A stretch of DNA of 64,000 nt from Escherichia coli (GTDB lineage: Bacteria; Pseudomonadota; Gammaproteobacteria; Enterobacterales; Enterobacteriaceae): the NCBI RefSeq assembly GCF_003018255.1, contig NZ_CP027440.1; one strand, 5' to 3'. Each line of letters starts with the position of its first letter. The stretch's first letter is position 1. The position numbers and the translations under genes are program-made. The notes beneath the pieces are model-generated. The model was given only the letters and a program-made list of their open reading frames with translations. It was not told the DNA's origin and did not search any database. Positions 17,135 through 44,628 of this stretch are shown here, piece by piece.

Positions 17135-17166
17135 TTATTTCTTCGAATTCCTCTTTATAAGATAAT

Positions 17167-17196
17167 CAGGGCTTTATTTTAAGCCCTGGTTGTTTT
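17167..17196 (+). terminator. rho-independent terminator of pyrD
   Basis: stem cagggctt-tatttt-aagccctg followed by ttgtttt. Confidence 0.7.
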
Positions 17197-17307
17197 ATAT
17201 TCATCGCTGTTGCTTATTTAGACATTTTGTACTTTTATTGTTGAGGTTATTAAGCGAAGCGACAATGGATTGTGTTGCTGCGGTTTTATAGGGTAGGGGA
17301 GAGGCAG

Positions 17308-18956: not shown

Positions 18957-19199
18957 GGTGCGGTCCTCAAATGAAAATAAGCCCTCAACTTTATGACATG
19001 ACGCGCTTATTAGCTATAATGCGCAACAATTTTCTTAGCGCCTGTCCCATTAGGCTATTTTATTTGTCAGTTTGGCCCAGGGAAGTGCTCGAAATCCTCA
19101 CGTACTTGTGTACGCTCCGGTTTCTCCGCGCTGTCCATGTCCAGACTGACTGCAACAATTACGCCTACTGCGGTAGGCTCTTAGAGTAAAAGTGACGAT

Positions 19200-21308: not shown

Positions 21309-21319
21309 AAGGAATAGTA

Positions 21320-23227: not shown

Positions 23228-23356
23228 TCGCAAAATAGTCGATTTAAACAGAGACAGCTGACAACGGTAAAATTGCCTGATGAACTGGGTTTATCAGGCA
23301 TGAAAACCAACACTTTGTTAGTCATCTGTAAAATAGCGCATCATTAAGGAGTACCA

Positions 23357-24610: not shown

Positions 24611-24614
24611 CAGT

Positions 24615-26255: not shown

Positions 26256-26815
26256 AAAAGTGGCTAGTGACGATTGCGGCACTGTGGCTGGCCGGATGCA
26301 GCTCCGGCGAAATTAATAAAAACTATTACCAGTTACCTGTGGTGCAGAGCGGTACACAAAGCACCGCCAGCCAGGGTAATCGCCTGTTATGGGTTGAGCA
26401 GGTCGCTGTTCCTGACTATCTGGCGGGGAATGGTGTGGTTTATCAAACCAGTGATGTGAAGTATGTGATTGCCAACAACAACCTGTGGGCCAGCCCGTTG
26501 GATCAACAGTTGCGCAACACTCTGGTTGCCAACCTGAGCACGCAACTGCCCGGCTGGGTGGTTGCCTCCCAGCCTCTGGGAAGCGCCCAGGATACGCTCA
26601 ATGTTACCGTAACGGAGTTTAACGGGCGATATGATGGCAAGGTCATTGTCAGTGGTGAGTGGCTGTTGAACCACCAGGGACAACTGATCAAACGTCCGTT
26701 CCGTCTGGAAGGGGTGCAAACTCAGGATGGTTACGATGAAATGGTTAAAGTGCTGGCCAGTGTCTGGAGTCAGGAAGCCGCTTCTATTGCGCAAGAGATA
26801 AAGCGTCTACCGTAA
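26252..26815 (+). CDS. pqiC: lipoprotein PqiC (YmbA)
   Basis: 187 aa; lipobox LAGCSS; 4-nt overlap with pqiB. Confidence 0.9.
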   Translation: MKKWLVTIAALWLAGCSSGEINKNYYQLPVVQSGTQSTASQGNRLLWVEQVAVPDYLAGNGVVYQTSDVKYVIANNNLWASPLDQQLRNTLVANLSTQLPGWVVASQPLGSAQDTLNVTVTEFNGRYDGKVIVSGEWLLNHQGQLIKRPFRLEGVQTQDGYDEMVKVLASVWSQEAASIAQEIKRLP

Positions 26816-26837
26816 TCATAAAGATTTGTAAATATAA

Positions 26838-26876
26838 CCGTCTCCGGTATGTTGCCTGAGGCGGTTTTTTTGTTTC
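26838..26876 (+). terminator. probable rho-independent terminator after pqiC
   Basis: imperfect GC-rich stem ending in ggcggttttttt. Confidence 0.5.
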
Positions 26877-27070
26877 TAAGGTGCGGAAAAAGTTGTTCCT
26901 CTTCACATTTTTTGTACAACTGACATGCCCGTGTAGCTCACAAATATGACAGTGGCGTGAATTTTGCGCATTGACGGCAGTTATGATTCGCGGTATTGCT
27001 TAACTGTGATTGCACATTTAGTAATCACTGTTTTCTTTTCCACCAGAAACCAGTATGAGGGAAACGAGGC

Positions 27071-27238
27071 ATGAAGAGACAAAAACGAGATCGCCTGGAA
27101 CGGGCACATCAACGTGGTTATCAGGCCGGCATCGCCGGACGCTCAAAAGAAATGTGTCCCTATCAGACGCTGAATCAAAGGTCACAATGGCTGGGAGGCT
27201 GGCGAGAAGCCATGGCGGACAGGGTAGTAATGGCCTGA
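27071..27238 (+). CDS. rmf: ribosome modulation factor (55 aa; below the ORF-track size cutoff)
   Basis: read directly from DNA: MKRQKRDRLERAHQRGYQAGIAGRSKEMCPYQTLNQRSQWLGGWREAMADRVVMA. Confidence 0.93.
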   Translation: MKRQKRDRLERAHQRGYQAGIAGRSKEMCPYQTLNQRSQWLGGWREAMADRVVMA

Positions 27239-27249
27239 TTCTGTCTCTT

Positions 27250-27287
27250 TAAAAAGAAACCTCCGCATTGCGGAGGTTTCGCCTTTT
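27250..27287. terminator. bidirectional terminator between rmf and fabA
   Basis: stem aaacctccgc-attg-cggaggtttc with A-run 5' and T-run 3'. Confidence 0.75.
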
Positions 27288-27307
27288 GATACTCTGTCTG
27301 ATTATAA

Positions 27308-27826
27308 TCAGAAGGCAGACGTATCCTGGAACAGACCGACTTTCAGGTCGCTGGCGGTATAGATCAGACGACCATCAACCAGCACTTCGCCATCTGCCAG
27401 ACCCATAATCAGACGTCGATTAACAATGCGTTTAAAGTGAATACGGTAGGTCACTTTTTTCGCTGTCGGCAGTACCTGACCGGTGAATTTCACTTCGCCA
27501 ACGCCCAGCGCGCGGCCTTTACCTTCGCCGCCCAGCCAGCCGAGGTAGAACCCTACCAGCTGCCACATTGCGTCCAGGCCCAGGCATCCCGGCATAACCG
27601 GATCGCCAATGAAGTGGCATCCGAAGAACCACAGATCCGGATTGATATCCAGTTCTGCTTCAACATACCCTTTGTCGAAGTTACCACCCGTTTCGGTCAT
27701 TTTGACCACACGGTCCATCATCAGCATGTTCGGTGCTGGCAATTGCGGGCCTTTAGCGCCAAACAGTTCACCGCGACCAGAGGCAAGAAGGTCTTCTTTT
27801 GTATAGGATTCGCGTTTATCTACCAT
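27308..27826 (-). CDS. fabA: 3-hydroxydecanoyl-ACP dehydratase/isomerase
   Basis: ORF track 27308..28024; start at ATG giving [23 protein letters not shown]; 172 aa. Confidence 0.95.
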
Positions 27827-27894
27827 GTTCTCTGTAAGCCTTATTTTATTGAAGCACGCAGGATAGCTAACACGTGTACGCTGAACAAGTCCGA

Positions 27895-29655
27895 TCAGTT
27901 CGGAATAAACCAGTTCAGCCAACGCAATGGCCATGGAAAACGGTGACGTCCTTCCTGTTGCGATGCTTGCGCGATACGTTCCTGGATGGTTTGCATCAGC
28001 GTCGTTTGGCCTTCGCCATCCCACACCAGATTTAATAATAACGGCAGTGCGTCAGTCACATCGTCTACTGCCCAGATGGTGAATTTGCCTTCTTCTACCG
28101 CTTTCACCAGTTCACTGTGAAGACTTAAATGGCGAATGTTAGCAGTGGGGATAATGACACCTTGTTTCCCGGTTAACTCACGTTGCTGGCAAATAGCAAA
28201 GAAGCCTTCGATTTTCTCATTTAAACCACCGACCGGCTGGGCACGACCGAACTGATCGACTGAACCTGTGATAGCGATACTCTGATTCACCGGCACATCG
28301 GCGAGGGCGCTTATCAGGGCGCAGAGTTCAGCCATCGAGGCACTATCGCCATCCACTTCACTGTATGACTGCTCAAATGTCAGCGATGCTGAGAAGGGGA
28401 TCTGTTGCTCAAGCTGTAGTTCCGACATCAGGAACGCCTGCATGATCATCATCCCTTTCGCATGGATATTGCCGCCAAGCTCCGCTTTGCGTTCGATGTC
28501 GGTGAACTCACCATCGCCAATATGCACAACGCAGCTAATGCGAGAAGGTTCGCCAAAAGCGCGTGGATGACCCGGAAATTCAATGACCGAAAGGGCGTTA
28601 ATTTGCCCGATGCGTTCGCCTTCGGTTTCAATCAGGATTTGCTCCTGAAGAATCTCATCCTGCATGCGTTCAGCGAGGAAACCTTCACGCCATTCACGCT
28701 GCTGCAGCATTAAGTTTAGCTGCTCGCCGGAGAAGGTGTCGCCATCGCACAGGGAGGCGACCTCTTTACACTGGCGGAGGATCCACTGCGGGCTAAGCGG
28801 AAGTGTTTCTTGTTCACCGGTGTAGCGGGCTGCTTCGCGGATAAGTACCGGCCAGGCATCCGCTCCCGGTGCAGGTAAGTGATTATGTCTTGCGGTCAAT
28901 GTTACCCAGCGACACCACTGGCTTACTGACTCCGCATCGACAATCTGCAGAGTATCTTCAAATTCGCTATAAATAGCCTGCTCTGAAAGCTCTGGTTCCA
29001 TCTCCTGGAAATCAGCCAATGATTCGCGTTCGCCTACCAGAATGACTTTCAGCTTCAATGGCATCGAAGGCACAGAGACGGGGAGAGGGCGCGACTCATC
29101 AAACGCAACCCAGTCAAAACGCTCGCGGTTAACGATATTTTTCAGCCGCATCCACAGCAGAGGTTGCGCCAGCAGTGTACGCAAAGAGATGATGAGAATA
29201 CCGCCATTTGCCTGATGCACCAGACCTGGCTGCAGGGTAATGTCGCCATTAAACTGGCGCAGGCAGCCAAAGAGTTGTTCCGCTTCTACCCAGTCGGCAG
29301 CGACAACTTGCGTTAAAGTCGCAAAATTATCATCTGCACTCACTGCGTTACGTAAGCGGATGGTGTGCCCGGAAACCTCATAGTGACCGCCCACCAGTTG
29401 GCCTGCATCGCTTTGTAGCGCACGCGCGGCATCGGCAATAAGATTCAGATACTCAGACTCTTCCGGGGCCTTCGCCAGCATAAAAGAGGAGGATGCTCGC
29501 GTATGCAGCAACTGCTCCAGCGCAAATTGCAGTCGCGGTTGAGTATCACTGAATAAAGGATCGTTTTCGTCAATCAAATGTGGCTGAGCAAATATTTCCT
29601 GATAGCTATCGGTATCAGGAACCAGGTCACGCCATGCAAGTTTCGTAATGGTCAA
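27895..29655 (-). CDS. ycbZ: Lon protease homolog YcbZ (LonH)
   Basis: 586 aa; sequence recognised, Lon-like C-terminal protease domain. Confidence 0.88.
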
Positions 29656-29840
29656 AGTTGATGTTTTTTAGTCTGTTGTCAAAGCCGCGATTATACCGTA
29701 ACCGGCACTACAGCACACGTAGAAAGCACCGACAATACTCCTGGCATGGGCGTTAAAGCTCACAGGATGGAGATTCTTTTCTTCACTGGCCCAAAAAGCT
29801 GATATTCTGTAAAGAGTTACACGGTAACATTGAGATCGCT

Positions 29841-30293
29841 ATGAAATATCAACAACTTGAAAATCTTGAAAGCGGTTGGAAATGGAAGTATCTGGTGAAG
29901 AAGCACCGCGAAGGGGAGTTAATCACCCGTTACATAGAAGCCAGTGCCGCCCAGGAAGCCGTCGATGTGTTGCTCTCGCTGGAAAATGAACCCGTGCTGG
30001 TAAATGGCTGGATTGACAAGCATATGAATCCGGAACTGGTCAATCGCATGAAGCAAACCATTCGGGCCAGACGGAAGCGCCATTTTAATGCGGAACATCA
30101 GCATACGCGCAAAAAATCGATCGATCTGGAATTTATTGTCTGGCAACGTCTGGCTGGTCTTGCGCAGCGTCGCGGTAAAACGCTTTCTGAAACGATTGTT
30201 CAGCTGATTGAAGATGCGGAAAACAAAGAGAAATACGCGAATAAAATGTCTTCTTTGAAGCAGGATCTGCAGGCATTGCTGGGTAAGGAATAA
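29841..30293 (+). CDS. matP: macrodomain Ter protein MatP (YcbG)
   Basis: 150 aa; [26 protein letters not shown]. Confidence 0.92.
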
Positions 30294-30325
30294 CTGACGA
30301 AAGTCAGTTCAATTTTCTAAAGACG

Positions 30326-30356
30326 AAAAAAAACCCCGCAGCAGCGGGGTTTTTTA
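30326..30356. terminator. bidirectional terminator between matP and ompA
   Basis: aaaaaaaaccccgc-agca-gcggggtttttta. Confidence 0.8.
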
Positions 30357-30368
30357 CCAGACGAGAAC

Positions 30369-31421
30369 TTAAGCCTGCGGCTGAGTTACAACGTCTTTGA
30401 TGCCTTTAACTTCGATCTCTACGCGACGATCCGGAGCCAGGCAATCGATCAGTGCAGCACGCTGTTTCACGTTGTCACAGGTGTTGCCAGTAACCGGGTT
30501 GGATTCGCCCATACCACGTGCGGAGATTTTGTCTGCCGGGATACCTTTAGAGATCAGGTAATCAACAACGGACTGAGCACGACGCTCGGACAGAGCCTGG
30601 TTATAAGCGTCAGAACCGATGCGGTCAGTGTAACCCAGAACAACTACGGAACCGTCTTTCGGATCCAGGTTGCTCAGCTGGCTGTACAGCTGATCCAGAG
30701 CAGCCTGACCTTCCGGTTTCAGGGTTGCTTTGTTGAAGGTGAACAGAACGTCAGACTTCAGAGTGAAGTGCTTGGTCTGTACTTCCGGTGCCGGAGCTGG
30801 AGCCGGAGCAACTACTGGAGCTGCTTCGCCCTGACCGAAACGGTAGGAAACACCCAGGCTCAGCATGCCGTTGTCCGGACGAGTGCCGATGGTGTGTGCA
30901 TCACCGATGTTGTTGGTCCACTGGTATTCCAGACGGGTAGCGATTTCAGGAGTGATCGCATACTCAACACCGCCAGCGAAGACCGGAGAAACGCCGGTGT
31001 CGTGGTCTTTAAAGGATGCGCCACCAGGTACGTTAGCCTTGGTGTCTGCACGCCATACCATACCACCCAGACGAGTGTAGATGTCCAGATCGTCAGTGAT
31101 TGGGTAACCCAGTTTAGCGGTCAGCTGAACGCCCTGAGCTTTGTATGCGCCGTTGATGTTGTCGCCTTTGTACGGCATACGACCTAACCAGTCGTAACCC
31201 ATTTCAAAGCCAACATACGGGTTAACCTGGTAACCACCAAAAGCACCTGCACCCAGTTGGTTTTCGTGGGTCGGACCATTGTTAGGAATAAAACCAGTGT
31301 CATGGTACTGGGACCAGCCCAGTTTAGCACCAGTGTACCAGGTGTTATCTTTCGGAGCGGCCTGCGCTACGGTAGCGAAACCAGCCAGTGCCACTGCAAT
31401 CGCGATAGCTGTCTTTTTCAT
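30369..31421 (-). CDS. ompA: outer membrane protein A (variant surface-loop allele)
   Basis: ORF track 30369..31508; start at ATG giving [21 protein letters not shown]; APAPAPAP hinge and OmpA-like C-terminal domain. Confidence 0.95.
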
Positions 31422-31776
31422 TTTTTGCGCCTCGTTATCATCCAAAATACGCCATGAATATCTCCAACGAGATAACACGGTTAAATCCTTCACCGGGGAT
31501 CTGCTCAATATTAACTCTACCGATATCTTCGGCTTATGCCGAGCACCCCTGGCGATGTAAAGTCTACAACGTAGTTGAAAACTTACAAGTGTGAACTCCG
31601 TCAGGCATATGAAAAAAAAGTCTTGTATAAGGTACGTTTAATCTTTTTTGTCAGCGACAATTTACAGAAGAAAATCGCGGAAACCGCTTCAGACAAGCCT
31701 CCGCAAGGAAAATTAGTCACGACTGAAAGCATTGGCTGGGCGACAAAAAAAGTTCCAGGATTAATCCTAAATTTAC

Positions 31777-32286
31777 TTAATGATACAAATTAGAGTGAAT
31801 TTTTAGCCCGGAAAGTTGTCTCGTTGCGTGAGAGGATGCGCTTACCGGACGCATAATAAACCCCATAGCGTTACCTTCATTTGCCGCATCAACAAGTTCA
31901 GCATGCTCTTCTGCAGTCAAATCATCTGCCAACCAACCGATCACCACGCTGTAATTGCCCGTGCGTAAAGCGCGAACCATTGACTCCACGGTGTGGCAAG
32001 GGGAGAGCTGGCTAATCTGCATTACTTTCGTTAAGGGTAGCCCAGATGCCTGAACCCATTCGCGACTCAGTTTTTGTTGCGGTGTTAACCAGAGTTGCCA
32101 GCGCGATTGCTGACCGAGTTGCTGTAACAATGGCAACAGTAGAAGTTGCGTCATCATGGGCTGATCTTCGCGATAGACAACTTCACTGATAAGCCCGGCT
32201 GTAGTGTTTTCCGTAGAGACACGCGCAATTTTACTTGCTGCGGATGAGAACGACGAAGAACGATGTGCATAGCCTGAAGTGTACAT
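31777..32286 (-). CDS. sulA: SOS cell division inhibitor SulA
   Basis: ORF track 31777..32292; start giving [20 protein letters not shown]. Confidence 0.95.
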
Positions 32287-32308
32287 AATCAATCCAGCCC
32301 CTGTGAGT

Positions 32309-32328
32309 TACTGTATGAATGTACAGTA
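32309..32328. promoter_or_regulatory. LexA operator (SOS box) of sulA
   Basis: taCTGTatgaatgtACAGta, a near-perfect CTGT-N8-ACAG palindrome 23 bp upstream of sulA start. Confidence 0.85.
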
Positions 32329-32504
32329 CATCCAGTGACGACAAAGATCAACTCTATTTTCGGAAAGAGCCTCGCAAATTTTGTCGTTGGTGACGGGAAA
32401 ACATAAATTAATCTTGCCCCTTAAGAATAAGTTGCCTATTTTCGTAGTTAACGGATCCGTTAATGTGAATCATTCTTTTATGTTATGATTTTAAAAGGAA
32501 TTTT

Positions 32505-33134
32505 ATGAAAAGCCTCTCCTATAAGCGGATCTATAAATCACAAGAATACCTGGCAACGTTGGGCACAATTGAATACCGATCATTGTTTGGTAGTTACAGC
32601 CTGACCGTTGACGACACGGTGTTTGCGATGGTTTCTGATGGTGAGTTGTATCTTCGGGCTTGTGAGCAAAGTGCACAGTACTGTGTAAAACATCCGCCTG
32701 TCTGGCTGACATATAAAAAGTGTGGCCGATCCGTTACCCTCAATTACTATCGGGTTGATGAAAGTCTATGGCGAAATCAACTGAAGCTGGTGCGTCTGTC
32801 GAAATATTCTCTCGATGCAGCGCTGAAAGAGAAAAGCACGCGCAATACCCGGGAAAGACTGAAAGATTTGCCCAATATGTCTTTTCATCTGGAAGCGATT
32901 CTCGGGGAGGTGGGGATTAAGGATGTACGGGCGTTACGTATACTTGGGGCAAAAATGTGTTGGTTGCGACTGCGGCAGCAAAACAGTCTGGTGACAGAAA
33001 AGATTCTGTTTATGCTTGAAGGGGCCATTATCGGTATTCATGAAGCTGCGCTCCCGGTGGCACGCCGCCAGGAGCTTGCAGAATGGGCTGACTCTCTTAC
33101 GCCAAAACAGGAGTTTCCTGCGGAACTTGAGTAA
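32505..33134 (+). CDS. sxy: competence regulator Sxy/TfoX
   Basis: 209 aa; MKSLSYKRIYKSQEYLATLGTIEYRSLFGSYSL. Confidence 0.92.
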   Translation: MKSLSYKRIYKSQEYLATLGTIEYRSLFGSYSLTVDDTVFAMVSDGELYLRACEQSAQYCVKHPPVWLTYKKCGRSVTLNYYRVDESLWRNQLKLVRLSKYSLDAALKEKSTRNTRERLKDLPNMSFHLEAILGEVGIKDVRALRILGAKMCWLRLRQQNSLVTEKILFMLEGAIIGIHEAALPVARRQELAEWADSLTPKQEFPAELE

Positions 33135-35250
33135 TCTGGCGTTGCAGACGACCAATCTCTGGCAGTAATGCAATCAATAACCCAACTTGTTGTACGACCA
33201 GAGGTTCTTTGCTGTCTGCCCGTGGTTCAAGTTGCTGCATCCGCTGTTTCAGGCCAGCTAATGCCTGATTGACGCGTTCTTCATCAGCAGGTTGATGATG
33301 TAGCGCGTCATCAACATAGCAAACTGCGTCATCAAGAAACGCCAGAATTTCAGGATTAGTTAACTGCTCCCGGTGAGCACCGAGGGCTGAGATATAGCTG
33401 GTAAACGTATGGTTAAGGCACAGCAACCGAAACGCGGCTTCGCGAATTTGCGGGGTAACGTTCGGTTCGCTGGACATATTTGATACCACCGACGCCAGTT
33501 CAGCATCACGGTTGTGTGCATCGCGGCGGGCAATACGATACGCCAGACGGTTATCACGCCCCTGATGGTATTGTTCCAGTATGGCATCGAGATACCGGCA
33601 GTTGGCCTCTGTGGCGCGTTCGAGCATTCGCGGCAGATTGCGAAACTTCCAGTCAGGCCAGATGTAGCTCACTGCCGCCCACGCAATGGCACAACCAATC
33701 AGCGTATCGATTACGCGAGGTAACGCCACTTCAAAACCTTCACCCAGCAAGTTGAAACACAGTAGCACCAAAAGTGTGATGAACATCGTTGCATGGGCGT
33801 ATTGCACGTTACGGAAGGCAAAAAAGAGCACGCCGGTAATAACCAGCAGCACCAGCTGCCCTTCCAGTGATGGCACAAACCACAGCACAGGAATACCAAT
33901 TGCGATACCTACCAGCGTACCAATAATCCTTAACTTCAGGCGGTGGCGCGTGGCGTTATAGTTTGGCTGGCAGACAAACAAACTTGTCAGCAAGATCCAA
34001 TACCCGTGATGCATTCCGGTTATCTGAATGATGGCGTAGCCGAAGCACAACACCAGCGACATTCTTACCGCATGACGGAAGAGGGCGGATTCCGGCGTGA
34101 AGTGACGGCTAAGACGCAGCCAGATATCACTCAATCCGTGCGGGCTGTCATCAGCGAGCTCATTTTCGTCATTATTATGGGGCAGTGCCTGGGCCTGTTC
34201 TGATTCAATTGTTGCCAGTTGGGCATCAATGGCACGTAAATTGTTCAGTAAAAATCCCAGTGTTTTGAGTAAATCAGCAGGAGCGCCGTTATCGCGCATC
34301 CGCTCCAGCGCAGCATCAATATGCGTAAAAGCGCGCTCAAAATGCGGATCATGTTGATAAGGCTGACGCAGCAAAATACAGCGTGACAGTTGCTGGCACG
34401 CCTGGCCCTGCATCGACATCAGCCGCTGAAAACGGAACAGCACGTCGCTGTGGCGAAAATGTTCACGCAATGTTTGATATTGAATATGAGAAGAGCTGGC
34501 ACGCTCGTGAATATCCTGTGCGACAAAGTAATAATGCAGTGTGCGACGCGTTCCTCGTTGACCACGATCGCCACGTAAGCGGGTCAGCAGCGAGAGTTTC
34601 GTCTGATTCAATGTCGCCATCAGCTGACCGTTGGCGAGAGCCAAATCGTACAGCGGTGCCTGGCTTTCATCTTCAATATCAGGATCAAACATGCGCGACT
34701 TGAGCTCAAGATAACGCGCCAGTTGTTCATAGCAACGCGCCAGGTTGTCCTGCAGCGGGCGGACCGGGAACAGCAGATGACCAATAAGTGTCAGGACGTT
34801 GTACCAGACGGCACCGGCCAGAAGATACATCGGCTGCTGATACCAGTGCTCATACAGTGATGTTCCCAACATAGTGTAAATGGCGATCAGCAATGCACCG
34901 AAGGCAATTGTTGCATAGCGTTGACCCAGACCGCCGAGCAAAATGAAGCCGCTGGTAGAGAGCGTTAAGCCAATCGCAAATAGCCAGGGCCAGGGAAACA
35001 GCAATTCTACTGAGGCCGAGGCGATAAAAAAGCAGAACAGCGTAATGATGAGGTTACGCAAACGTCCCGCCAGTCGGTCATCGAGATCGGTCAGCGCCGC
35101 TGCCACCATCCCAAGCGTCAGCGGAATCGTCAGTTTTACATCACCCAGCCACCACGGAAACGCTGTGGTTCCACAAAGCGCAATAAAAATACGCGCGTAA
35201 TACAGCCAGGCGCTGTTCCAGGTATAGCGTTTGAGCAAAGGACTTAGCAT
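33097..35250 (-). CDS. yccS: inner membrane protein YccS (putative efflux/FUSC-like transporter)
   Basis: ORF track 33097..35259 (720 aa); two in-frame ATGs 9 nt apart, so start is ambiguous (35250 or 35259). Confidence 0.88.
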   Translation of the reverse strand: MLSPLLKRYTWNSAWLYYARIFIALCGTTAFPWWLGDVKLTIPLTLGMVAAALTDLDDRLAGRLRNLIITLFCFFIASASVELLFPWPWLFAIGLTLSTSGFILLGGLGQRYATIAFGALLIAIYTMLGTSLYEHWYQQPMYLLAGAVWYNVLTLIGHLLFPVRPLQDNLARCYEQLARYLELKSRMFDPDIEDESQAPLYDLALANGQLMATLNQTKLSLLTRLRGDRGQRGTRRTLHYYFVAQDIHERASSSHIQYQTLREHFRHSDVLFRFQRLMSMQGQACQQLSRCILLRQPYQHDPHFERAFTHIDAALERMRDNGAPADLLKTLGFLLNNLRAIDAQLATIESEQAQALPHNNDENELADDSPHGLSDIWLRLSRHFTPESALFRHAVRMSLVLCFGYAIIQITGMHHGYWILLTSLFVCQPNYNATRHRLKLRIIGTLVGIAIGIPVLWFVPSLEGQLVLLVITGVLFFAFRNVQYAHATMFITLLVLLCFNLLGEGFEVALPRVIDTLIGCAIAWAAVSYIWPDWKFRNLPRMLERATEANCRYLDAILEQYHQGRDNRLAYRIARRDAHNRDAELASVVSNMSSEPNVTPQIREAAFRLLCLNHTFTSYISALGAHREQLTNPEILAFLDDAVCYVDDALHHQPADEERVNQALAGLKQRMQQLEPRADSKEPLVVQQVGLLIALLPEIGRLQRQITQVPQETPVLA

Positions 35251-35268
35251 AAAGGCCATATTAGTGGA

Positions 35269-35715
35269 TTATTGGAAACGACGACGTGCATTGGCTTCGC
35301 GCGCAGCTTGCGCTGTTTCTACCGATACCACGCGACGACCGACCGGCCATAGTGCAATAGCGGCAATTTTAAAGTTCGCAATACCGACAGGAATGCCAAT
35401 GATGGAAATACATTGTGCGATGCCCGTTGCAATGTGCATCAGGCATAACCACCAGCCAAAGAAAATCAGCCAGAAAATATTCAATACCGTACCGCCAGTA
35501 TTTAGCAGCACATTTTTGCCAGCCGGGTTCAGTTCATCGACATGAATAGCTTCATTGCCATAAGGCACCAGAGACAGTTTGGTGATCTCCCAGCAGGATC
35601 GTGTCAGTGGTAAGGTAAAAATCAGCACAATACTGACCAGAGTCGCCAACAGCCAGCCCAGAGTGGTGGCAAATCCGCCAAGCACAAAGTTCAGAATGTT
35701 CAAAACGGTACGCAT
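35269..35715 (-). CDS. yccF: inner membrane protein YccF
   Basis: 148 aa hydrophobic; MRTVLNILNFVLGGFATTLGWLL. Confidence 0.9.
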   Translation of the reverse strand: MRTVLNILNFVLGGFATTLGWLLATLVSIVLIFTLPLTRSCWEITKLSLVPYGNEAIHVDELNPAGKNVLLNTGGTVLNIFWLIFFGWWLCLMHIATGIAQCISIIGIPVGIANFKIAAIALWPVGRRVVSVETAQAAREANARRRFQ

Positions 35716-35837
35716 AAAACCTCGCTTTACTGTGGTTTTCAGTAATGGGCGGCAATTGTAACGTTTTTTTGGGCTGGAGCACGTTTTCTCTGACGGTTAC
35801 ACTGATAAGAAATAATTTCGTGTGGATCTACAGAGTC

Positions 35838-37892
35838 ATGGAACTGAAAGCGACAACGCTTGGAAAACGTCTGGCACAGCACCCTTACGATCGGGCGGTG
35901 ATCCTCAATGCCGGGATTAAAGTCTCCGGCGATCGCCACGAATACCTTATTCCTTTCAATCAATTACTGGCGATTCACTGTAAGCGCGGTCTGGTATGGG
36001 GCGAACTGGAGTTTGTACTGCCGGACGAAAAAGTGGTGCGTCTGCACGGCACCGAATGGGGCGAGACGCAGCGTTTTTACCATCATCTTGATGCTCACTG
36101 GCGGCGGTGGAGTGGCGAGATGAGCGAAATTGCGTCTGGCGTTTTACGTCAGCAACTGGATTTGATTGCCACGCGCACCGGAGAAAATAAATGGCTGACG
36201 CGTGAGCAAACCTCTGGCGTGCAGCAACAAATCCGCCAGGCTTTGTCGGCGTTACCATTGCCGGTTAACCGACTGGAAGAATTCGATAACTGCCGTGAGG
36301 CGTGGCGTAAATGTCAGGCCTGGTTGAAGGACATTGAAGGCGCTCGGTTGCAGTATAATCAGGCGTATACCGAAGCCATGCTTACCGAGTATGCGGATTT
36401 TTTCCGCCAGGTCGAGTCTTCACCGCTGAATCCGGCGCAGGCCCGGGCAGTCGTTAATGGCGAGCATTCTCTGTTAGTGCTGGCAGGTGCAGGAAGCGGA
36501 AAAACGTCGGTGCTGGTGGCCCGTGCTGGCTGGTTACTGGCGCGTGGTGAAGCGTCTCCTGAGCAAATTTTATTGCTGGCGTTTGGTCGCAAAGCCGCTG
36601 AAGAGATGCACGAGCGTATTCGAGAACGACTACATACCGAAGACATTACCGCACGCACGTTTCATGCGCTGGCGCTGCATATTATTCAGCAGGGCAGCAA
36701 AAAAGTTCCGATAGTCAGCAAACTGGAAAATGATACCGCTGCCCGTCATGAACTTTTTATTGCTGAGTGGCGCAAGCAATGCAGCGAAAAGAAAGCGCAG
36801 GCGAAGGGCTGGCGGCAATGGCTGACGGAAGAAATGCAGTGGTCAGTGCCAGAAGGTAATTTCTGGGATGATGAAAAATTACAGCGTCGTCTTGCCTCTC
36901 GCCTCGATCGCTGGGTAAGTCTGATGCGGATGCACGGTGGTGCACAGGCAGAAATGATTGCCAGTGCACCCGAAGAGATTCGCGATCTGTTCAGTAAACG
37001 TATCAAGTTGATGGCCCCGTTATTAAAAGCCTGGAAAGGTGCGCTGAAGGCAGAAAACGCTGTCGATTTTTCGGGCCTTATTCACCAGGCGATTGTGATT
37101 CTGGAGAAAGGTCGCTTTATCAGCCCGTGGAAGCATATTCTGGTTGATGAATTTCAGGATATCTCGCCGCAGCGTGCAGCGTTGTTAGCGGCATTACGCA
37201 AGCAAAATAGTCAAACGACGTTGTTCGCTGTTGGTGATGACTGGCAGGCGATTTACCGATTCAGCGGTGCGCAAATGTCGCTTACCACGGCTTTCCATGA
37301 AAACTTTGGTGAAGGTGATCGCTGTGATTTAGACACGACCTACCGTTTTAACAGTCGTATCGGTGAGGTGGCAAACAGGTTTATTCAGCAGAACCCAGGC
37401 CAGCTTAAAAAGCCGCTAAACAGCTTAACCAATGGAGACAAAAAAGCCGTCACGTTATTGGATGAGGGTCAACTTGACGCTTTGCTGGATAAACTCTCTG
37501 GTTATGCCAAACCGGAAGAGCGCATTCTGATCCTGGCGCGTTACCATCACATGAGGCCTGCCAGCCTGGAAAAAGCAGCAACACGCTGGCCGAAGTTGCA
37601 AATCGACTTTATGACCATTCATGCCAGCAAAGGGCAACAGGCGGATTACGTCATCATCGTTGGCTTGCAGGAGGGGAGTGATGGTTTTCCGGCTGCGGCG
37701 CGGGAGTCGATTATGGAAGAGGCGCTACTGCCACCGGTTGAGGATTTCCCGGACGCTGAAGAACGGCGGTTAATGTACGTGGCGCTGACCCGGGCACGCC
37801 ATCGGGTATGGGCACTGTTTAACAAAGAGAATCCCTCTCCCTTTGTGGAAATACTGAAAAATCTGGATGTGCCGGTGGCGAGAAAACCGTAA
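35838..37892 (+). CDS. helD: DNA helicase IV
   Basis: ORF track 35745..37892; start at ATG 35838 giving MELKATTLGKRLAQHPYDRAVIL; Walker A GAGSGKT. Confidence 0.93.
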   Translation: MELKATTLGKRLAQHPYDRAVILNAGIKVSGDRHEYLIPFNQLLAIHCKRGLVWGELEFVLPDEKVVRLHGTEWGETQRFYHHLDAHWRRWSGEMSEIASGVLRQQLDLIATRTGENKWLTREQTSGVQQQIRQALSALPLPVNRLEEFDNCREAWRKCQAWLKDIEGARLQYNQAYTEAMLTEYADFFRQVESSPLNPAQARAVVNGEHSLLVLAGAGSGKTSVLVARAGWLLARGEASPEQILLLAFGRKAAEEMHERIRERLHTEDITARTFHALALHIIQQGSKKVPIVSKLENDTAARHELFIAEWRKQCSEKKAQAKGWRQWLTEEMQWSVPEGNFWDDEKLQRRLASRLDRWVSLMRMHGGAQAEMIASAPEEIRDLFSKRIKLMAPLLKAWKGALKAENAVDFSGLIHQAIVILEKGRFISPWKHILVDEFQDISPQRAALLAALRKQNSQTTLFAVGDDWQAIYRFSGAQMSLTTAFHENFGEGDRCDLDTTYRFNSRIGEVANRFIQQNPGQLKKPLNSLTNGDKKAVTLLDEGQLDALLDKLSGYAKPEERILILARYHHMRPASLEKAATRWPKLQIDFMTIHASKGQQADYVIIVGLQEGSDGFPAAARESIMEEALLPPVEDFPDAEERRLMYVALTRARHRVWALFNKENPSPFVEILKNLDVPVARKP

Positions 37893-37895
37893 GAA

Positions 37896-37917
37896 ACAGG
37901 TGGCGTTTGCCACCTGT
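37896..37917. terminator. bidirectional hairpin between convergent helD and mgsA
   Basis: acaggtggc-gttt-gccacctgt. Confidence 0.6.
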
Positions 37918-37923
37918 GCAATA

Positions 37924-38382
37924 TTACTTCAGACGGTCCGCGAGATAACGCTGATAATCGGGGATCAGAATATCGACCGCGTCGTTGAAATGCGGCGACT
38001 GGATAATGAAGTCTGCCGTTGCCACGTTGGTGGCAACCGGAATGTTCCATACCGTCGCCAGACGCAGCAAGGCTTTCACGTCAGGATCGTGCGGAACGGC
38101 ATTTAGTGGGTCCCAGAAGAAAATCAATACATCAATTTTCCCTTCTGAGATCAATGCGCCAACCTGCTGGTCACCCCCCATTGGGCCACTCAACATCGCG
38201 TTGACGTTCATGCCGGTTGCACGGGAAATCAAGTTACCGGTAGTGCCTGTTGCATACAGTACGTGTTGTTCCAGTAACGGTTGATGTCGTTCCACCCAGC
38301 TCATCAGCATTTGTTTGCAGTGATCGTGTGCCACCAGCGCAATATGTTTCCGCGCAGGTAAAGTGCGTGTCGTCAGTTCCAT
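37924..38382 (-). CDS. mgsA: methylglyoxal synthase
   Basis: ORF track 37924..38391; start giving [23 protein letters not shown]. Confidence 0.95.
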
Positions 38383-38477
38383 AATGTACATCCGTAGTTA
38401 ACTTTCCTACAGATTACTGTAAGCACTTATCGCTGCAAGAGAAAGACCGAAAAAGCCTGCGCACAGGCACAAAAATC

Positions 38478-39140
38478 TCAGGAGGATGGTTGTTTTTCCG
38501 CCCATTGCAGGAAAGTATTTCGCGTTTGTGGGTCAGCCAGTTTAAACCAATACTTCAGCCGTTGTTCTGTGAGCACCTGAGACTGCGGCGGAATAGCATC
38601 CAGCTCGGAAACACCCGAAAGCAGCGTACTGTCATCTGCCATCATCGTGGCAAATTGCGGTAGTGAAGCGCGTTTCGCGGATTTGTTATAGCGTTCAACC
38701 TCGACCTCATAATCAATCGTTTTTGCAGTTGAGGTAATGGCGAGAATATCCAGCTTTACCGGAATCGGCGTCGCATCGCCATCCAACAATTCAAGGCGCG
38801 GCGCGGCATCAAAATGGTTAGCTTCCCGCTCATTCTCCAGGCGAGGCAGGCGAAAATTGACCTGGTTGATGAGCTGGGTATTAAAACTAACCACCAGTGG
38901 AGGGGAGATATAGAGCCGTTCTTCACTATTGGAAAGATGAATCGTCTTCTCAACGCGAAACACTAACTGATGCGGTCCATTGTCCAGTTCAATGCTGTCC
39001 GCACCACGCAGCAGAGAGCTGGAAACCTTCTTACCGTCGAGTACCAGAAGATCGACATCGGTAGAAAGCCGCAGCGTGGTGGCAAAAACGGATACCGGCA
39101 AACATAATGCAATCAAGGTGGTCACGATGCCGGTTTTCAT
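38478..39140 (-). CDS. yccT: periplasmic protein YccT (UPF0319/DUF2057)
   Basis: 220 aa; N-terminal signal peptide [20 protein letters not shown]. Confidence 0.88.
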
Positions 39141-39312
39141 AGATAGCTCCTGTTAAAAGACCGCCCGAATAATAATGTGTCAAAATTTTTCTTTAATCAT
39201 ACTTACTAACATATAGATATATTTCCCGCTTTTGCTCTCATTCATTCGTATTAGCTGCATGGTTGGCATGTCGGCTTTGTCGTACACTTTGTTAAACAGT
39301 CTGGAGGAAATA

Positions 39313-39768
39313 ATGAAAGAAACCGATATTGCAGGCATTTTAACGTCCACTCACACCATTGCGCTGGTGGGGGCAAGCGACAAACCCGATCGTCCCAGCT
39401 ATCGCGTGATGAAATATCTACTCGACCAGGGGTATCACGTCATTCCTGTTTCGCCAAAAGTTGCCGGCAAAACACTGCTGGGCCAGCAGGGGTATGGCAC
39501 GCTGGCAGACGTTCCGGAAAAAGTCGATATGGTCGATGTTTTCCGTAATTCAGAAGCGGCGTGGGGCGTGGCGCAGGAAGCTATCGCCATTGGTGCGAAA
39601 ACCCTCTGGATGCAACTGGGGGTGATTAATGAGCAAGCGGCAGTGCTGGCGCGTGATGCAGGGCTAAACGTGGTGATGGATCGCTGCCCGGCGATTGAGA
39701 TCCCTCGTCTGGGCCTGGCAAAAAAAAAAAATACCCGGAAGGCGAAAACCTTCCGGGTATGTTTATGA
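39313..39768 (+). CDS. yccU: CoA-binding domain protein YccU; C-terminal tail here reads through an A12 tract
   Basis: ORF track 39232..39768; start at ATG 39313 giving [20 protein letters not shown]; reading frame continues ...[19 protein letters not shown] through the terminator hairpin. Confidence 0.85.
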
Positions 39769-39771
39769 GGA

Positions 39772-40146
<375 letters not shown>

Positions 40147-41337
40147 TTACATGACGCGACAGGCAAACCCTTTCAGATATAGCCCTTCCGGGTAGGTAGC
40201 GATCACCGGATGATCGGCTGCCTGACGGAACTGCTCTATAAATTGTACATCACGACCGGCATCAATTGCGGCATCCGCGATGATTTTCTGAAATAAATCG
40301 CTGGTCATCAGACCGGAACAGGAGAAAGTCAGGAGAACACCGCCTTCATTCAGCAACTGAATCGCCAGCATGTTGATGTCTTTATAACCACGACACGCGC
40401 CCATCAACTGGCTTTTATTCTCAACAAACTTCGGCGGGTCCATCACGATAACGTCAAATTTTTCACCGCGATCGCGATAAGTACGCAGCAATTTAAAGAC
40501 ATCATCACGGACAAACTCAGCCTTGCTCAGATCCAGTTTGTTCAGCTCAACGTTCTGCCGTGCAATATCCAGCGCTTCGTGGGAGGTATCAACGCTGACA
40601 ACCTGGCTGCAACCGCCCATCAATGCCGATACGGCGAAACCACCGGTATAGGAGAAACAGTTAAGTACGCGTTTATTTTCGACGTAGCGGCGGGTAGCCA
40701 GGCGGCTGTCACGCTGGTCCAGGTAGTAGCCCGTTTTGTGTCCGTGCTGAATATCCACCAGCAGTTTCATGCCGTGTTCTTCAATCGGCAGCAGGGCAGG
40801 CGGCAACTCGCCGGTGATGGGGCCCTGAGTCAGCTCCATCCCTTCTTTTTTACGTACCGCGACGTCGCTGCGATCGTAAATAGCACATTCCGGGTACAGC
40901 GTTTGCAGGGCGCTAATTAATGCCGCGCGCTGATACTCTGCGCCAGCACTCAGCAGTTGCAGCACCAGAAAATTACCGAAACGATCGATAGTAATACCCG
41001 GCAGGCCATCAGATTCTCCGGCGATTAAACGATAGCTGTCGAGGCCATCTTTTTGCGCCAGCCAGTCACGCCATTTTTGTGCTTGCTGCAAACGGCGGGT
41101 AAAAAAAGCAATGTCGATAGACTCTGACGGGTCAAACGTCCAGACGCGCGCCCGGATTTGCGAAGCTGGCGAATAAGCGCCGCGTGCTAACCATTTTCCC
41201 TGATGATCAACAATATCGATGGTTTCACCGAGGCTGGCTTTACCTTCCATGCGGGCAACGGCCCCGGAAAAGACCCACGGATGGCGACGAAGTAATGATT
41301 TTTCGCGCCCTTTGGCTAACACTAAACGTACACTCAT
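40147..41337 (-). CDS. rlmI: 23S rRNA m5C1962 methyltransferase RlmI (YccW)
   Basis: 396 aa; [27 protein letters not shown]. Confidence 0.93.
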
Positions 41338-41431
41338 AATTTACTTTTCTGTCGATGCAAAGAAATGGGCGTCATTGTCCGGAGTTTTCCATGGATTTGC
41401 AACGCGTCCATTAAGGATAAGGAGAGCAGCA

Positions 41432-41710
41432 ATGTCGAAAGTCTGCATAATTGCCTGGGTTTACGGGCGAGTTCAGGGCGTAGGATTCCGCTACACCACG
41501 CAGTACGAAGCGAAAAAACTGGGACTAACCGGGTACGCCAAAAATCTTGACGATGGCAGCGTGGAAGTGGTTGCCTGCGGTGACGAAGGGCAGGTGGAAA
41601 AATTAATGCAGTGGTTAAAAAGTGGCGGCCCGCGTTCAGCGCGTGTGGAACGGGTGCTTAGCGAGCCGCATCATCCCTCCGGGGAGTTAACGGATTTTCG
41701 TATCCGTTAA
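41432..41710 (+). CDS. acyP: acylphosphatase (YccX)
   Basis: ORF track 41219..41710; start at ATG 41432 giving [27 protein letters not shown] (acylphosphatase signature); 92 aa. Confidence 0.9.
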
Positions 41711-42036
41711 ATGCATTTTACCGGTTTAGGCAGGCCAGCAATTTTGGTGGCTTGCTTTGCCGGACCTTTCGGGAACAGTCGGTACAGATAGCGGCTATTG
41801 CCTTTCTCTTCGCCAAATTTATTCGCCATCGCTTTTACCAGCATACGAATCGCCGGAGAAGTATTGAATTCCAGATAGAAATCACGCACAAAACGCACCA
41901 CTTCCCAGTGTTCTGGCGACAGCGCAATCCCTTCGTTCTCTGCAATCACCACCGCCAGTGGTTCACTCCACTGGCTGCTTTCTTTGAGATAGCCTTCGGT
42001 ATCCGTTTCTATCTCTTTACCTTCGAAGATCAGCAT
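41707..42036 (-). CDS. tusE: sulfurtransferase TusE (YccK)
   Basis: 109 aa; [18 protein letters not shown]; DsrC-like C-terminal ...PKPVKCI. Confidence 0.92.
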
Positions 42037-42127
42037 AATTCTTTACTACCTTAATCAGACTGGCGGCAGTGTAACAAAAAACAAAGCCCCGCATAAAGCG
42101 AGGCTCGGTAAGTAACCCTGGGCGAGA

Positions 42128-42787
42128 TTAATCGCGGCTGGCGAAGCCCAGAATGCTCAGCAGGCTGACGAAGATGTTGTACAGCGAAACATACAGGCTA
42201 ACCGTGGCACGAATATAGTTCGTTTCACCGCCATGAATGATGTTGCTGGTTTCAAACAAAATAGCGCCAGAGGAGATCAGAATGAAGACCGCGCTGATCG
42301 CCAGATGCAGAGCAGGCAGTTGCAGGAAGATATTAGCAACCATACCAATCAGCACCACCACAATACCCGCCATCAGCATACCGCCAAGGAATGACATATC
42401 TTTGCGGGTGGTCAGCACATACGCAGAGCAGCAGAAGAACACTAACGCCGTTCCGCCCAGTGCCATAGCGATTACGTCACCCATTCCGGCAGACAGATAG
42501 GTGTTCAGAATTGGTCCGAGGATATAACCCAGAAAACCGGTAAAGGCGAATGCGGAGATAATCCCGGTCGGCTTATTCGCCGTTTTGTAGGTCAGGAACA
42601 TCAAACCATACATACCCACCAGCGTCAGAATCAGACCCGGAGATGGCAGCATCAGCACCGTACTGGCAGTTGCGGTAATCGCCGAAAAGGCCAGCGTCAG
42701 GCTCAGCAGAAAATAGGTATTACGCAGCACCTTATGGGTGCTAAGCAGCGATGTACGGTCATGTGAAGAACTAACTATACGATCCAT
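42128..42787 (-). CDS. yccA: FtsH modulator YccA (BI-1 family membrane protein)
   Basis: 219 aa, 7-TM-like hydrophobic profile; sequence recognised. Confidence 0.93.
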
Positions 42788-42957
42788 TGAGTCACTCTCT
42801 ATGACAGATGTAATTAATTAAGCAGCATAATGATAATGTGGGAAGGTACACAGAAGTTTTACCCATCTTTACGCATTTGATCTGAAACAAGTTTCACAGC
42901 GGAGTCTCAGGTCATTAGGCAGTGATATAACGCCCTGAGAATTTCGACAGGCAAAAG

Positions 42958-42990
42958 AAAAAGGGGTTAGCATTTAGCTAACCCCTTATC
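42958..42990 (-). terminator. rho-independent terminator of serT
   Basis: stem aaggggttagc-attt-agctaacccctt; T-run on minus strand immediately 3' of the tRNA. Confidence 0.75.
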
Positions 42991-42995
42991 TTATT

Positions 42996-43083
42996 TGGCG
43001 GAAGCGCAGAGATTCGAACTCTGGAACCCTTTCGGGTCGCCGGTTTTCAAGACCGGTGCCTTCAACCGCTCGGCCACACTTCC
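42996..43083 (-). tRNA. serT: tRNA-Ser (anticodon UGA), 88 nt including encoded CCA
   Basis: minus strand reads GGAAGTGTGGCCGAGCGGTTGAAGGCACCGGTCTTGAAAACCGG...GGTTCGAATCTCTGCGCTTCCGCCA; long variable arm; anticodon loop CUUGAAA. Confidence 0.95.
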
Positions 43084-43509
43084 GGAATGACGCGCACTAT
43101 AAACATCCCGATGCAGCGTGTAAACCCCTAATTTGTTTGTTTGCCTGAAAAACAGCCAAAAGTGCATTGATAGCGTGAAATAACAGCAGATTGATCATTT
43201 CATCACCATGAATTCCTTCTCTTTTACTCGTTTAGCAATCGGCTAAACATCCCCACCGCCCGGTAAAAAGAAAAATAGGTCCATTTTTATCGCTAAAAGA
43301 TAAATCCACACAGTTTGTATTGTTTTGTGCAAAAGTTTCACTACGCTTTATTAACAATACTTTCTGGCGACGTGCGCCAGTGCAGAAGGATGAGCTTTCG
43401 TTTTCAGCATCTCACGTGAAGCGATGGTTTGCCTTGCTACAGGGACGTCGCTTGCCGACCATAAGCGCCCGGTGTCCTGCCGGTGTCGCAAGGAGAAGAG
43501 ACGTGCGAT

Positions 43510-44628
43510 ATGAATAACGAGGAAACATTTTACCAGGCCATGCGGCGTCAGGGCGTTACCCGACGCAGCTTTCTCAAATATTGCAGTCTGGCTGCCACGT
43601 CGCTGGGATTAGGCGCGGGGATGGCACCAAAGATTGCCTGGGCGCTGGAGAACAAACCGCGCATTCCGGTGGTATGGATCCACGGTCTGGAATGCACCTG
43701 CTGTACCGAATCTTTTATCCGCTCCGCTCACCCGCTGGCAAAGGACGTCATCCTTTCCCTGATTTCCCTCGATTACGACGATACTTTGATGGCTGCCGCC
43801 GGAACCCAGGCGGAAGAAGTCTTTGAAGACATCATCACGCAATACAATGGCAAATATATCCTCGCAGTAGAAGGTAATCCGCCGCTGGGCGAGCAGGGGA
43901 TGTTCTGTATCAGCAGCGGTCGACCGTTTATTGAGAAACTCAAACGTGCCGCTGCCGGAGCCAGTGCGATTATCGCCTGGGGAACCTGCGCGTCCTGGGG
44001 CTGCGTGCAGGCCGCGCGACCCAATCCGACGCAGGCAACGCCTATCGACAAAGTCATCACCGACAAACCTATTATCAAAGTACCTGGCTGCCCGCCGATC
44101 CCGGATGTGATGAGCGCCATCATTACTTACATGGTGACCTTTGATCGCTTGCCAGATGTCGACAGAATGGGCCGTCCGTTGATGTTCTATGGTCAGCGTA
44201 TCCACGATAAATGCTATCGCCGTGCTCACTTCGACGCCGGAGAGTTCGTCCAGAGTTGGGATGATGACGCTGCCCGCAAAGGTTACTGCCTGTACAAAAT
44301 GGGCTGCAAAGGGCCTACCACCTATAACGCCTGTTCCTCCACACGCTGGAACGATGGCGTTTCCTTCCCGATCCAGTCAGGTCACGGCTGCCTGGGTTGT
44401 GCGGAAAATGGTTTCTGGGATCGCGGTTCGTTCTACAGCCGCGTGGTCGATATTCCACAAATGGGTACCCATTCCACCGCCGACACCGTCGGTTTAACCG
44501 CGCTTGGCGTGGTGGCAGCGGCTGTTGGTGTGCACGCAGTCGCCAGCGCCGTTGACCAGCGCAGGCGTCATAACCAGCAACCTACAGAAACCGAACATCA
44601 GCCAGGCAATGAGGATAAACAGGCATGA
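43510..44628 (+). CDS. hyaA: [NiFe] hydrogenase 1 small subunit, Tat signal
   Basis: ORF track 43483..44628; start at ATG 43510 giving [29 protein letters not shown] (twin-arginine motif). Confidence 0.95.

Follow-up and report, generated by a model that had tools for sequence, protein, structure and literature searches.

The serT–hyaA gap of Escherichia coli: a probable divergent control region with a conserved hyaA 5' UTR

The serT–hyaA locus

In Escherichia coli the tRNA gene serT and the hyaA gene of the hydrogenase-1 operon (hyaABCDEF) are divergently oriented and separated by a gene-free gap of 426 bp. The gap lies at positions 43084..43509 of a 64,000-nucleotide stretch of contig NZ_CP027440.1 (assembly GCF_003018255.1), which is referred to here as the window, and the order of the locus is yccA-serT-hyaAB with the PhyaA promoter region located directly 5' of hyaA (Table 1). 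An earlier note on this DNA described the gap as a noncoding leader of 425 bp. Its noncoding nature holds up, the borders being set by ARAGORN and Rfam on the serT side and by the ATG of hyaA at 43510, and its length is corrected by a single base pair. The AT-richness that had been noticed in the 5' half is likewise borne out, with a GC content of 31-41% over 43100-43340 compared to 54-61% over 43380-43500. The serT gene on the left border is identical at 88/88 positions in four other Escherichia lineages.

The gap shares 99% identity with positions 1031713..1032138 of K-12 MG1655, where no annotation is found between serT (b0971) and hyaA (b0972). The two sequences are distinguished by five single-base differences (at 43115, 43239, 43264, 43265 and 43496), none of which falls within a documented PhyaA site. 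All but one of 5,426 complete E. coli genomes (5,425) carry the gap, almost always as a single copy, and the 14 E. coli records listed show no annotated feature beneath it. Its length is no statistical anomaly because the gap is flanked by divergent genes and has to provide for two promoters. It is very probably a divergent control region that is composed of the serT promoter, a spacer, PhyaA and the hyaA 5' UTR, rather than a single leader, and those of its parts that can be named are the PhyaA/serT control region already known from K-12. The term leader is therefore too wide for the whole 425 bp that it had been applied to, as the transcribed leader covers only about 156 nt (43354/55..43509). 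The divergence of serT had been overlooked as well; the first ~45 bp of the gap constitute the serT core promoter on the opposite strand, and conservation of the ~60 bp that follow is limited to genomes in which serT is the neighbour.

Table 1. Features of the serT–hyaA gap and its borders, in window coordinates
Feature	Position	Strand	Description
serT, tRNA-Ser(UGA)	42996..43083	-	Left border of the gap; ARAGORN; Rfam tRNA, 57.5 bits; K-12 annotation b0971
serT core promoter	43096..43124	-	-35 TTTACA (43124..43119), 17-bp spacer, -10 TATAGT (43101..43096)
Flank upstream of the serT promoter	43131..43190	-	83-90% identity in other Escherichia lineages
Fast-evolving, Escherichia-specific spacer	43191..43282		46-52% identity and indels in E. 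albertii and two divergent Escherichia lineages
PhyaA promoter block	43283..43353	+	-35 TTGTTT (43320-25), 16-bp spacer, -10 TACGCT (43342-47), C at -13
IscR type-2 operator	43300..43328	+	ataaatccacacagtttgtattgttttgt; identical to the 29-bp DNA of PDB 4HF1 (IscR-hya complex)
65-aa TTG ORF, spurious	43320..43517	+	Start codon falls within the -35 hexamer and precedes +1 by 34 nt
ArcA box	43337..43357	-	TTGTTAATAAAGCGTAGTGAA; same 21-mer as published (PMC3798270 supplement)
hyaA 5' UTR	43354..43509	+	155/156 nt; start at A43354 or C43355
H0 hairpin/palindrome	43364..43380	+	CTGGCG-ACGTG-CGCCAG; +10/+11 to +26/+27
29-aa ATG uORF, not a conserved gene	43424..43513	+	Stop overlaps the hyaA start (ATGA)
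HC hairpin	43465..43489	+	GCGCCCGGTGTCCTGCCGGTGTCGC; adjoins the Shine-Dalgarno sequence; basal 5 pairs in 100% of cells, 14 distinct sequences
Shine-Dalgarno sequence to hyaA ATG	43490..43512	+	AAGGAG (43490-95), 14-nt spacer, ATG; direct reading
hyaA start	43510	+	ATG; right border of the gap

The serT promoter and the spacer

The serT promoter is the sole sigma-70-like site that a promoter scan detects in the gap, and it matches the consensus at 10/12 positions. Both of its hexamers are identical across five Escherichia sequences, and the segment 43084-43130 contains a single variable site among nine E. coli strains. On the minus strand this strong promoter of the stable-RNA type (43096-43124) would drive the expression of serT. 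Promoters of stable RNAs carry a G+C-rich discriminator after the -10 element. In the serT promoter the sequence GCGCGTC directly follows the -10 hexamer and may represent such a discriminator of the stringent type, while the 5' end of the mature tRNA is located 12 nt past the -10 element. By analogy with other stable-RNA promoters, transcription is predicted to start at ~43088-89, which would place the start 5-6 nt ahead of the mature 5' end and leave a short leader that is presumably removed by RNase P. The near-consensus hexamers, the 17-bp spacer and an A-rich stretch above the -35 element are shared with the sigma-70 promoters of tRNA and rRNA genes, as would be the putative G+C-rich discriminator and the predicted start just before the mature tRNA. 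Growth-rate or stringent control with sensitivity to ppGpp/DksA, an UP element and a dependence on Fis are assumed for serT by this analogy alone.

The flank upstream of the serT promoter (43131..43190) is conserved only where serT adjoins and is not alignable outside Escherichia. It may possibly serve as an UP element or as a binding region for an activator of serT. Together with the spacer that follows, it forms the fast-evolving and Escherichia-specific part of the gap (about 43131-43282). Within the locus the spacer itself (43191..43282) shows the lowest conservation, and across the nine E. coli strains it has 10.9 variable sites per 100 nt. Hexamers of the sequence ATTTCA, known as the 'YdeO box', are found just before the spacer on the minus strand (43176-81) and within it on the plus strand (43197-202). 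Binding of YdeO is documented by ChIP-chip and EMSA at the resolution of the serT–hyaA intergenic region and is accompanied by induction of hya (PMC4222967).

The PhyaA promoter

PhyaA is the single known promoter of the hya operon. The promoter block is 100% identical to that of K-12 and contains no variable sites among nine E. coli strains, and its -35 hexamer TTGTTT is invariant in 18 sequences. In the comparison of hyaA loci across genera, which is based on one genome per species, serT flanks the operon upstream in Escherichia alone, as the operon is placed elsewhere in Salmonella, Citrobacter and Edwardsiella. Despite the differing upstream neighbour, cross-genus conservation begins sharply at ~43283 and continues to the ATG, so that the control region specific to hya spans ~227 bp. 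The simple promoter scan did not pick up PhyaA, as would be expected of a weak, activator-dependent promoter. The context of its -10 element appears to be favourable to sigma-S.

The documented IscR and ArcA sites of the K-12 promoter can be matched one by one in the window. The -35 hexamer is located within the IscR type-2 operator, in the layout described for K-12, where it is embedded in the right half of the IscR site and where repression results from a steric clash with sigma region 4 and the alpha-CTD (PMC8561392). The ArcA box corresponds to NC_000913.2 1031189-1031209 and is listed at '-18 to 3' (PMC3798270 supplement). The peak centres from ArcA ChIP-chip and ChIP-seq map to window positions ~43419 and ~43412, respectively, which corresponds to +58 to +65 and lies some 60 bp past the predicted box on the hyaA side. 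The ChIP-seq summit of AppY is located at K-12 position 1031990, which corresponds to 43361 in the window, and hya is induced 2^9.2-fold by AppY (PMC10057817). No exact match to the AppY motif ATGSCWGM was found in the gap, and a motif search of the gap returned no FNR, CRP or NarL motifs.

The numbering of the ArcA box places +1 at 43355, and the 'insertions at -17 and -19' of pPK13849, for which the primer adds G and T at 43335-38, place it at 43354/55. The start is derived from published numbering and not from raw mapping data, which leaves a margin of 1 nt and room for minor promoters.

The weak -35 element of PhyaA is buried in the IscR type-2 operator, and in air apo-IscR very probably occludes sigma region 4. 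Phosphorylated ArcA binds its box across the -10 element to +3 (43337-57), and the AraC-type activators AppY and YdeO bind as well. Jointly these factors very probably relieve or override the repression in response to anoxia, acid and stationary phase, and transcription from 43354/55 yields a 5' UTR of ~156 nt that ends in AAGGAG-N14-ATG. This is the K-12 scheme of IscR type-2 repression that is relieved by ArcA and AppY, with activation by YdeO, at the same locus; the occupancy by AppY and YdeO and the control by oxygen, pH and growth phase are carried over to the window from the K-12 literature (PMC10057817, PMC4222967). The earlier expectation of a complex promoter that responds to anaerobiosis, acid and stationary phase is borne out. 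The documented binding of IscR, ArcA, AppY and YdeO makes it a promoter with several inputs, namely oxygen, redox state, acid and stationary phase (PMC8561392, PMC3798270, PMC10057817, PMC4222967).

Conservation of the hyaA leader

The 5' UTR of hyaA is conserved well above the level that is seen at neutral proxies. It is identical to that of E. albertii at 154/156 positions, compared to 75% identity at the 4-fold degenerate sites of hyaA and 86% in the promoter block. In three other Escherichia lineages the identity of the UTR is 92-100% while that of the 4-fold sites is 70-74%, and the adjacent yccA-serT gap reaches just 67-89% in the same genomes. Within E. coli the segment 43354-43462 contains one variable site among nine strains, as opposed to ~15 variable sites for every 100 third-codon positions. 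Of the seven polymorphisms that the UTR carries in these strains, six cluster at 43463-96, in or beside the hairpin HC. The Shine-Dalgarno sequence AAGGAG is invariant in 15 full-length UTR sequences.

A UTR profile built for nhmmer matches enterobacterial hya loci only among 95 loci, and the leader is absent from the second hya-like locus of Salmonella, from Plesiomonas and from the beta- and alpha-proteobacterial homologues. The region upstream of the Plesiomonas hyaA gene is unrelated. A scan of metagenomes for further orthologues yielded one contig resembling S. arizonae. In three Citrobacter species the UTR is shortened by ~100 nt between the hairpin H0 and the Shine-Dalgarno sequence. 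No documented site accounts for the strong conservation of +1 to +109. Judged from these sequence comparisons, we read the leader as probably being under purifying selection for some function.

RNA structure of the hyaA leader

A tentative reading of this conservation is that the 156-nt leader is a post-transcriptional element which tunes the translation of hyaA or the decay of its mRNA, by means of H0, HC and a possible anti-Shine-Dalgarno sequence (CCUUGC), or of docking sites for sRNAs or proteins. It would supplement the promoter model and not replace it. The slow evolution of the UTR relative to the 4-fold sites, the third-codon positions and the yccA-serT gap speaks in its favour, as do two local hairpins. 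The first of these, H0, recurs in three of four genera, namely Escherichia, Salmonella and Citrobacter, where even the three species with a short UTR retain it, and is weakened by one mismatch in Edwardsiella. In H0 93% of cells are paired, and its local folding reaches z-scores of -1.7 to -3.5 except in Edwardsiella. No compensatory change was found in H0, and in the window no similar palindrome recurs at other promoters. The second hairpin, HC, recurs in 15/15 sequences, and its interior varies in sequence and length by genus yet still folds (z of -0.9 to -3.9). The leader also contains the inverted repeat CCTTGC (43432-37) and GCAAGG (43488-93), the latter of which overlaps the Shine-Dalgarno sequence, and CCUUGC could on the basis of this complementarity mask the Shine-Dalgarno region. 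Both arms of the repeat are conserved for other possible reasons, which means that covariation between them is not assessable.

The properties of the leader as a whole weigh against such an element. The entire UTR folds no better than its dinucleotide shuffles, with a z-score of 0.04 for the window and of -1.7 to +1.1 for 15 orthologues. The RNAalifold consensus is weak at -9.4 kcal/mol with a covariation term of -1.87. No pair that changed on both sides was found in H0, HA, HB or HC, and the covariation score lies within that of the shuffles, in an alignment of 14 distinct sequences from four genera that gives limited power. The helices HA (43398-404/43416-23) and HB (43419-26/43446-53) are mutually exclusive in E. 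coli and were considered as a switch, a candidate that was rejected as neither helix is kept in Salmonella or Edwardsiella. The leader furthermore has no Rfam match, and ~100 nt of it are missing in three Citrobacter species. With neither compensatory changes nor excess stability, the leader does not present itself as a structured leader of the riboswitch kind. A comparison with the long regulatory 5' UTRs of enterobacteria, which are controlled by sRNAs, by CsrA or by structure, gives a mixed picture. The hyaA leader has in common with them its length of ~156 nt and its conservation above the synonymous level, as well as a hairpin adjacent to the Shine-Dalgarno sequence and a CCUUGC stretch complementary to the Shine-Dalgarno region, but differs in the lack of covariation and in its ordinary stability, so that this is a resemblance and not membership.

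The expression of hyaABCDEF falls upon anaerobic expression of RyhB (PMC4676285), which is consistent with docking of an sRNA on the leader. However, in terms of duplex energy the UTR does not pair with RyhB more favourably than its shuffled versions do (p about 0.13 and 0.69). Pairing with FnrS was considered and rejected, as the sole complementarity amounts to 9 bp (an exact stretch of 7 bp plus two wobble or extension pairs added by eye), which by our own estimate is at chance level. As a separate observation, FnrS and the leader share a stretch of 13/14-nt identity, which is not complementarity.

Open reading frames in the gap

The 65-aa open reading frame that begins with TTG at 43320 had been dismissed as spurious, and this is supported by the position of its TTG inside the -35 hexamer and 34 nt upstream of the hya +1. 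As the start codon lies upstream of the transcription start, the frame is not contained in the hya mRNA, and it is lost in relatives.

A second frame of 29 codons (43424..43513) is located on the mRNA, and its translation might regulate hyaA by translational coupling. The ATG is present, the overlap of stop and start codons (ATGA) is the classic layout for coupling, and the 14-nt distance between the Shine-Dalgarno sequence and the ATG of hyaA is unusually long. Such a regulatory uORF is nevertheless very unlikely. S. arizonae, Citrobacter MGH106 and E. hoshinae do not have its ATG. Owing to 1-nt indels, the ATG is found in the frame of hyaA in one Escherichia lineage (L004) and in E. ictaluri, and it occupies the third frame in Salmonella. 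The frame of the uORF relative to hyaA thus differs even between close relatives, namely between the window and L004 and between E. ictaluri and E. anguillarum. The uORF has no usable Shine-Dalgarno sequence, as the purine run GAAG ends 2 nt before the ATG, and the entire region is deleted in the three Citrobacter species. Among the Ribo-RET rows listed from the table of Stringer et al. none falls at K-12 10319xx-10320xx, which is weak evidence given this scope and the aerobic cells from which the data stem. The similarity of the N-terminal peptides follows from the conservation of the nucleotide sequence. A mini-ORF of nine codons (MSFRFQHLT, 43390-43419) was rejected on the basis of start and frame conservation and of its Shine-Dalgarno spacing. 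With regard to attenuation, the scan revealed no terminator-like site in 43084-43509 and the alternative helices HA and HB are not conserved.

Search for a possible small RNA gene in the gap

The length of the gap and the 5' part without assigned function (43131-43282) would leave room for an independent sRNA gene on either strand. Such a gene is even less probable than a regulatory uORF and can be considered highly improbable. An Rfam scan of the gap (E <= 10) returned nothing above noise, with a best E-value greater than 0.1 and far below the gathering thresholds; over 42500-44000 only the tRNA passes, while all others score no more than 22 bits against thresholds of 35-86. The gap contains no terminator-like site, and the serT promoter is the only one that was found by the scan. 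The Term-seq tables (PMC7815308) contain no 3' ends between serT and appA/insB and jump from serT (1031625) past hya, although these data come from aerobically grown cells, which express hya poorly, and therefore represent absence of evidence only. Similarly, none of the Cappable-seq rows listed falls in the hya region, and hya is barely expressed aerobically. The part without assigned function shows the lowest conservation in the locus and carries no annotation in K-12 or among the E. coli genomes listed. The earlier note had left room for an sRNA or a leader peptide and suggested a structure or covariance search for sRNAs. With the Rfam models this search gave no family match in the gap, and neither possibility gains support from Rfam, from the conservation of the reading frames or from the Term-seq data, which cover aerobic conditions.

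RNA- and DNA-level readings of the leader

A rival explanation for the conservation of the leader is that the sequence downstream of +1 acts as DNA and contains operators inside the transcribed region, such as extended sites for ArcA, YdeO and AppY or sites for NarL/NarP and Fis. This is consistent with the ArcA ChIP centres, which at +58 to +65 lie beyond the predicted box in the direction of hyaA, with the AppY summit at +7 and with the protection by YdeO that reaches +84 at the gadW promoter (PMC4222967). H0 is also a perfect palindrome at the level of DNA, and NarL, NarP and Fis are included in a list of hya repressors (table in PMC8910356). On the other hand, the UTR contains no exact NarL heptamer, no FNR or CRP site and no second ArcA repeat, and constructs covering -200 to +40 reproduce the regulation by IscR in vitro (PMC8561392). 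For peaks as weak as these (enrichment of 2-4x), ChIP does not resolve offsets of ~60 bp, and the conservation of the leader is continuous over ~110 nt and thus not site-sized. An operator function within the transcribed region is accordingly rather doubtful.

A role of the leader at the level of RNA, in mRNA stability or translation, is itself no more than tentatively favoured, and is considered more likely than the comparable reading in terms of DNA operators. H0, HC and the conserved core of the UTR may act on mRNA stability or on translation. Whether the leader, and chiefly its near-invariant first ~110 nt, constitutes an undescribed post-transcriptional element that is specific to the enterobacterial hya operon is more doubtful than an RNA-level role as such. 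Such an element might serve as a platform on which an anaerobic or iron-responsive sRNA docks, or as a switch that masks the Shine-Dalgarno sequence by means of CCUUGC (43432-37).

Implications for hydrogenase-1 regulation

A long gap that was formerly unexplained is accounted for by two known promoters and a leader, and is not a candidate for a new gene. The regulation of hydrogenase-1 has been studied nearly entirely at the promoter, with constructs that extend to +40, while the leader past +40 is conserved above neutral expectation. If the leader does act post-transcriptionally, the deletion of ~100 nt in three Citrobacter species would provide a natural loss-of-function comparison. Such a finding would be of use to specialists and would come as no surprise; it would add a layer of control at the level of translation or mRNA stability to hydrogenase-1, a model operon for the response to oxygen and Fe-S status.

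The serT flank

In both pathogenic E. coli strains whose flank was inspected, one of them O157:H7 (loci L089, 1-2945, and L095, 1-1031), yccA is replaced as the neighbour of serT by prophage genes, which comprise tail fibre genes, tccP2 and espV in one strain and espK in the other, which marks the 3' flank of serT as a site where prophages integrate. No insertion is present in this flank in the window. Of 5,425 E. coli genomes, about 760 cease to match the window approximately 40 nt 3' of serT. Inside serT, a FliA ChIP peak has been reported that is very weak (FAT score 1) and whose motif is poor (Fitzgerald et al. 2014). A 3' end is tabulated at K-12 position 1031585, just beyond the terminator hairpin of serT, and we interpret this end as sensitive to bicyclomycin (Adams et al. 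2021).

Features of the serT-hyaA region in window coordinates
Feature	Position	Strand
3' flank of serT	42953-42995	
Tabulated 3' end	~42956	
serT terminator hairpin	42961-42987	
serT	42996-43083	minus
FliA ChIP peak	43021-43048	
Predicted ArcA box	43337-43357	
hyaA leader	43354/43355-43509	
Hairpin H0	43364-43380	
ArcA ChIP peak centres, mapped	~43412-43419	
FnrS-like stretch	43414-43427	
In-frame GTG	43483	
Shine-Dalgarno AAGGAG to hyaA ATG	43490-43512	plus

The hyaA leader and translation start

The published centres of the ArcA ChIP-chip and ChIP-seq peaks (NC_000913.2 1031271 and 1031264) both map within the conserved leader, with the predicted ArcA box lying about 60 bp upstream of them. 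The leader also contains a stretch, ACGTGAAGCGATGG, which is identical rather than complementary at 13 of 14 nt to nucleotides 14-27 of the anaerobic sRNA FnrS (ACGTCAAGCGATGG), which we take to be the loop of its first stem-loop. By our own estimate a match of this quality has a chance expectation of about 0.004 for this RNA pair, the comparison being post hoc, and it is not conserved in the leaders of Salmonella or Edwardsiella.

The Shine-Dalgarno sequence lies unusually far (14 nt) from the hyaA start codon, a spacing that is kept in Escherichia, Edwardsiella and Salmonella. In Citrobacter sp. On2M, C. werkmanii and C. youngae (L013-L015, ~1440-1500) approximately 100 nt of the leader are absent while the promoter and hairpin H0 are retained; here hyaA, which begins ATGAATACGAAT..., starts 6 nt farther upstream and the spacing is therefore 8 nt, not 14. 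The in-frame GTG upstream of the Shine-Dalgarno sequence gives a mechanical ORF of 381 aa. One Salmonella enterica 'hydrogenase 1 small subunit' record (P0001) has 424 aa, 52 residues more than the usual 372, which may reflect a mis-called start running into the leader.

Relationships of the hya operon

Over residues 1-330 HyaA of Edwardsiella (L006-L009) is 98% identical to that of E. coli, compared with 94-95% for Salmonella and Citrobacter (L010-L015, L082), and the leaders are 72% and 54-63% identical, respectively. Because Edwardsiella is the more distant genus yet the more similar to E. coli, these sequence comparisons suggest horizontal transfer of the hya operon, including its promoter and leader.
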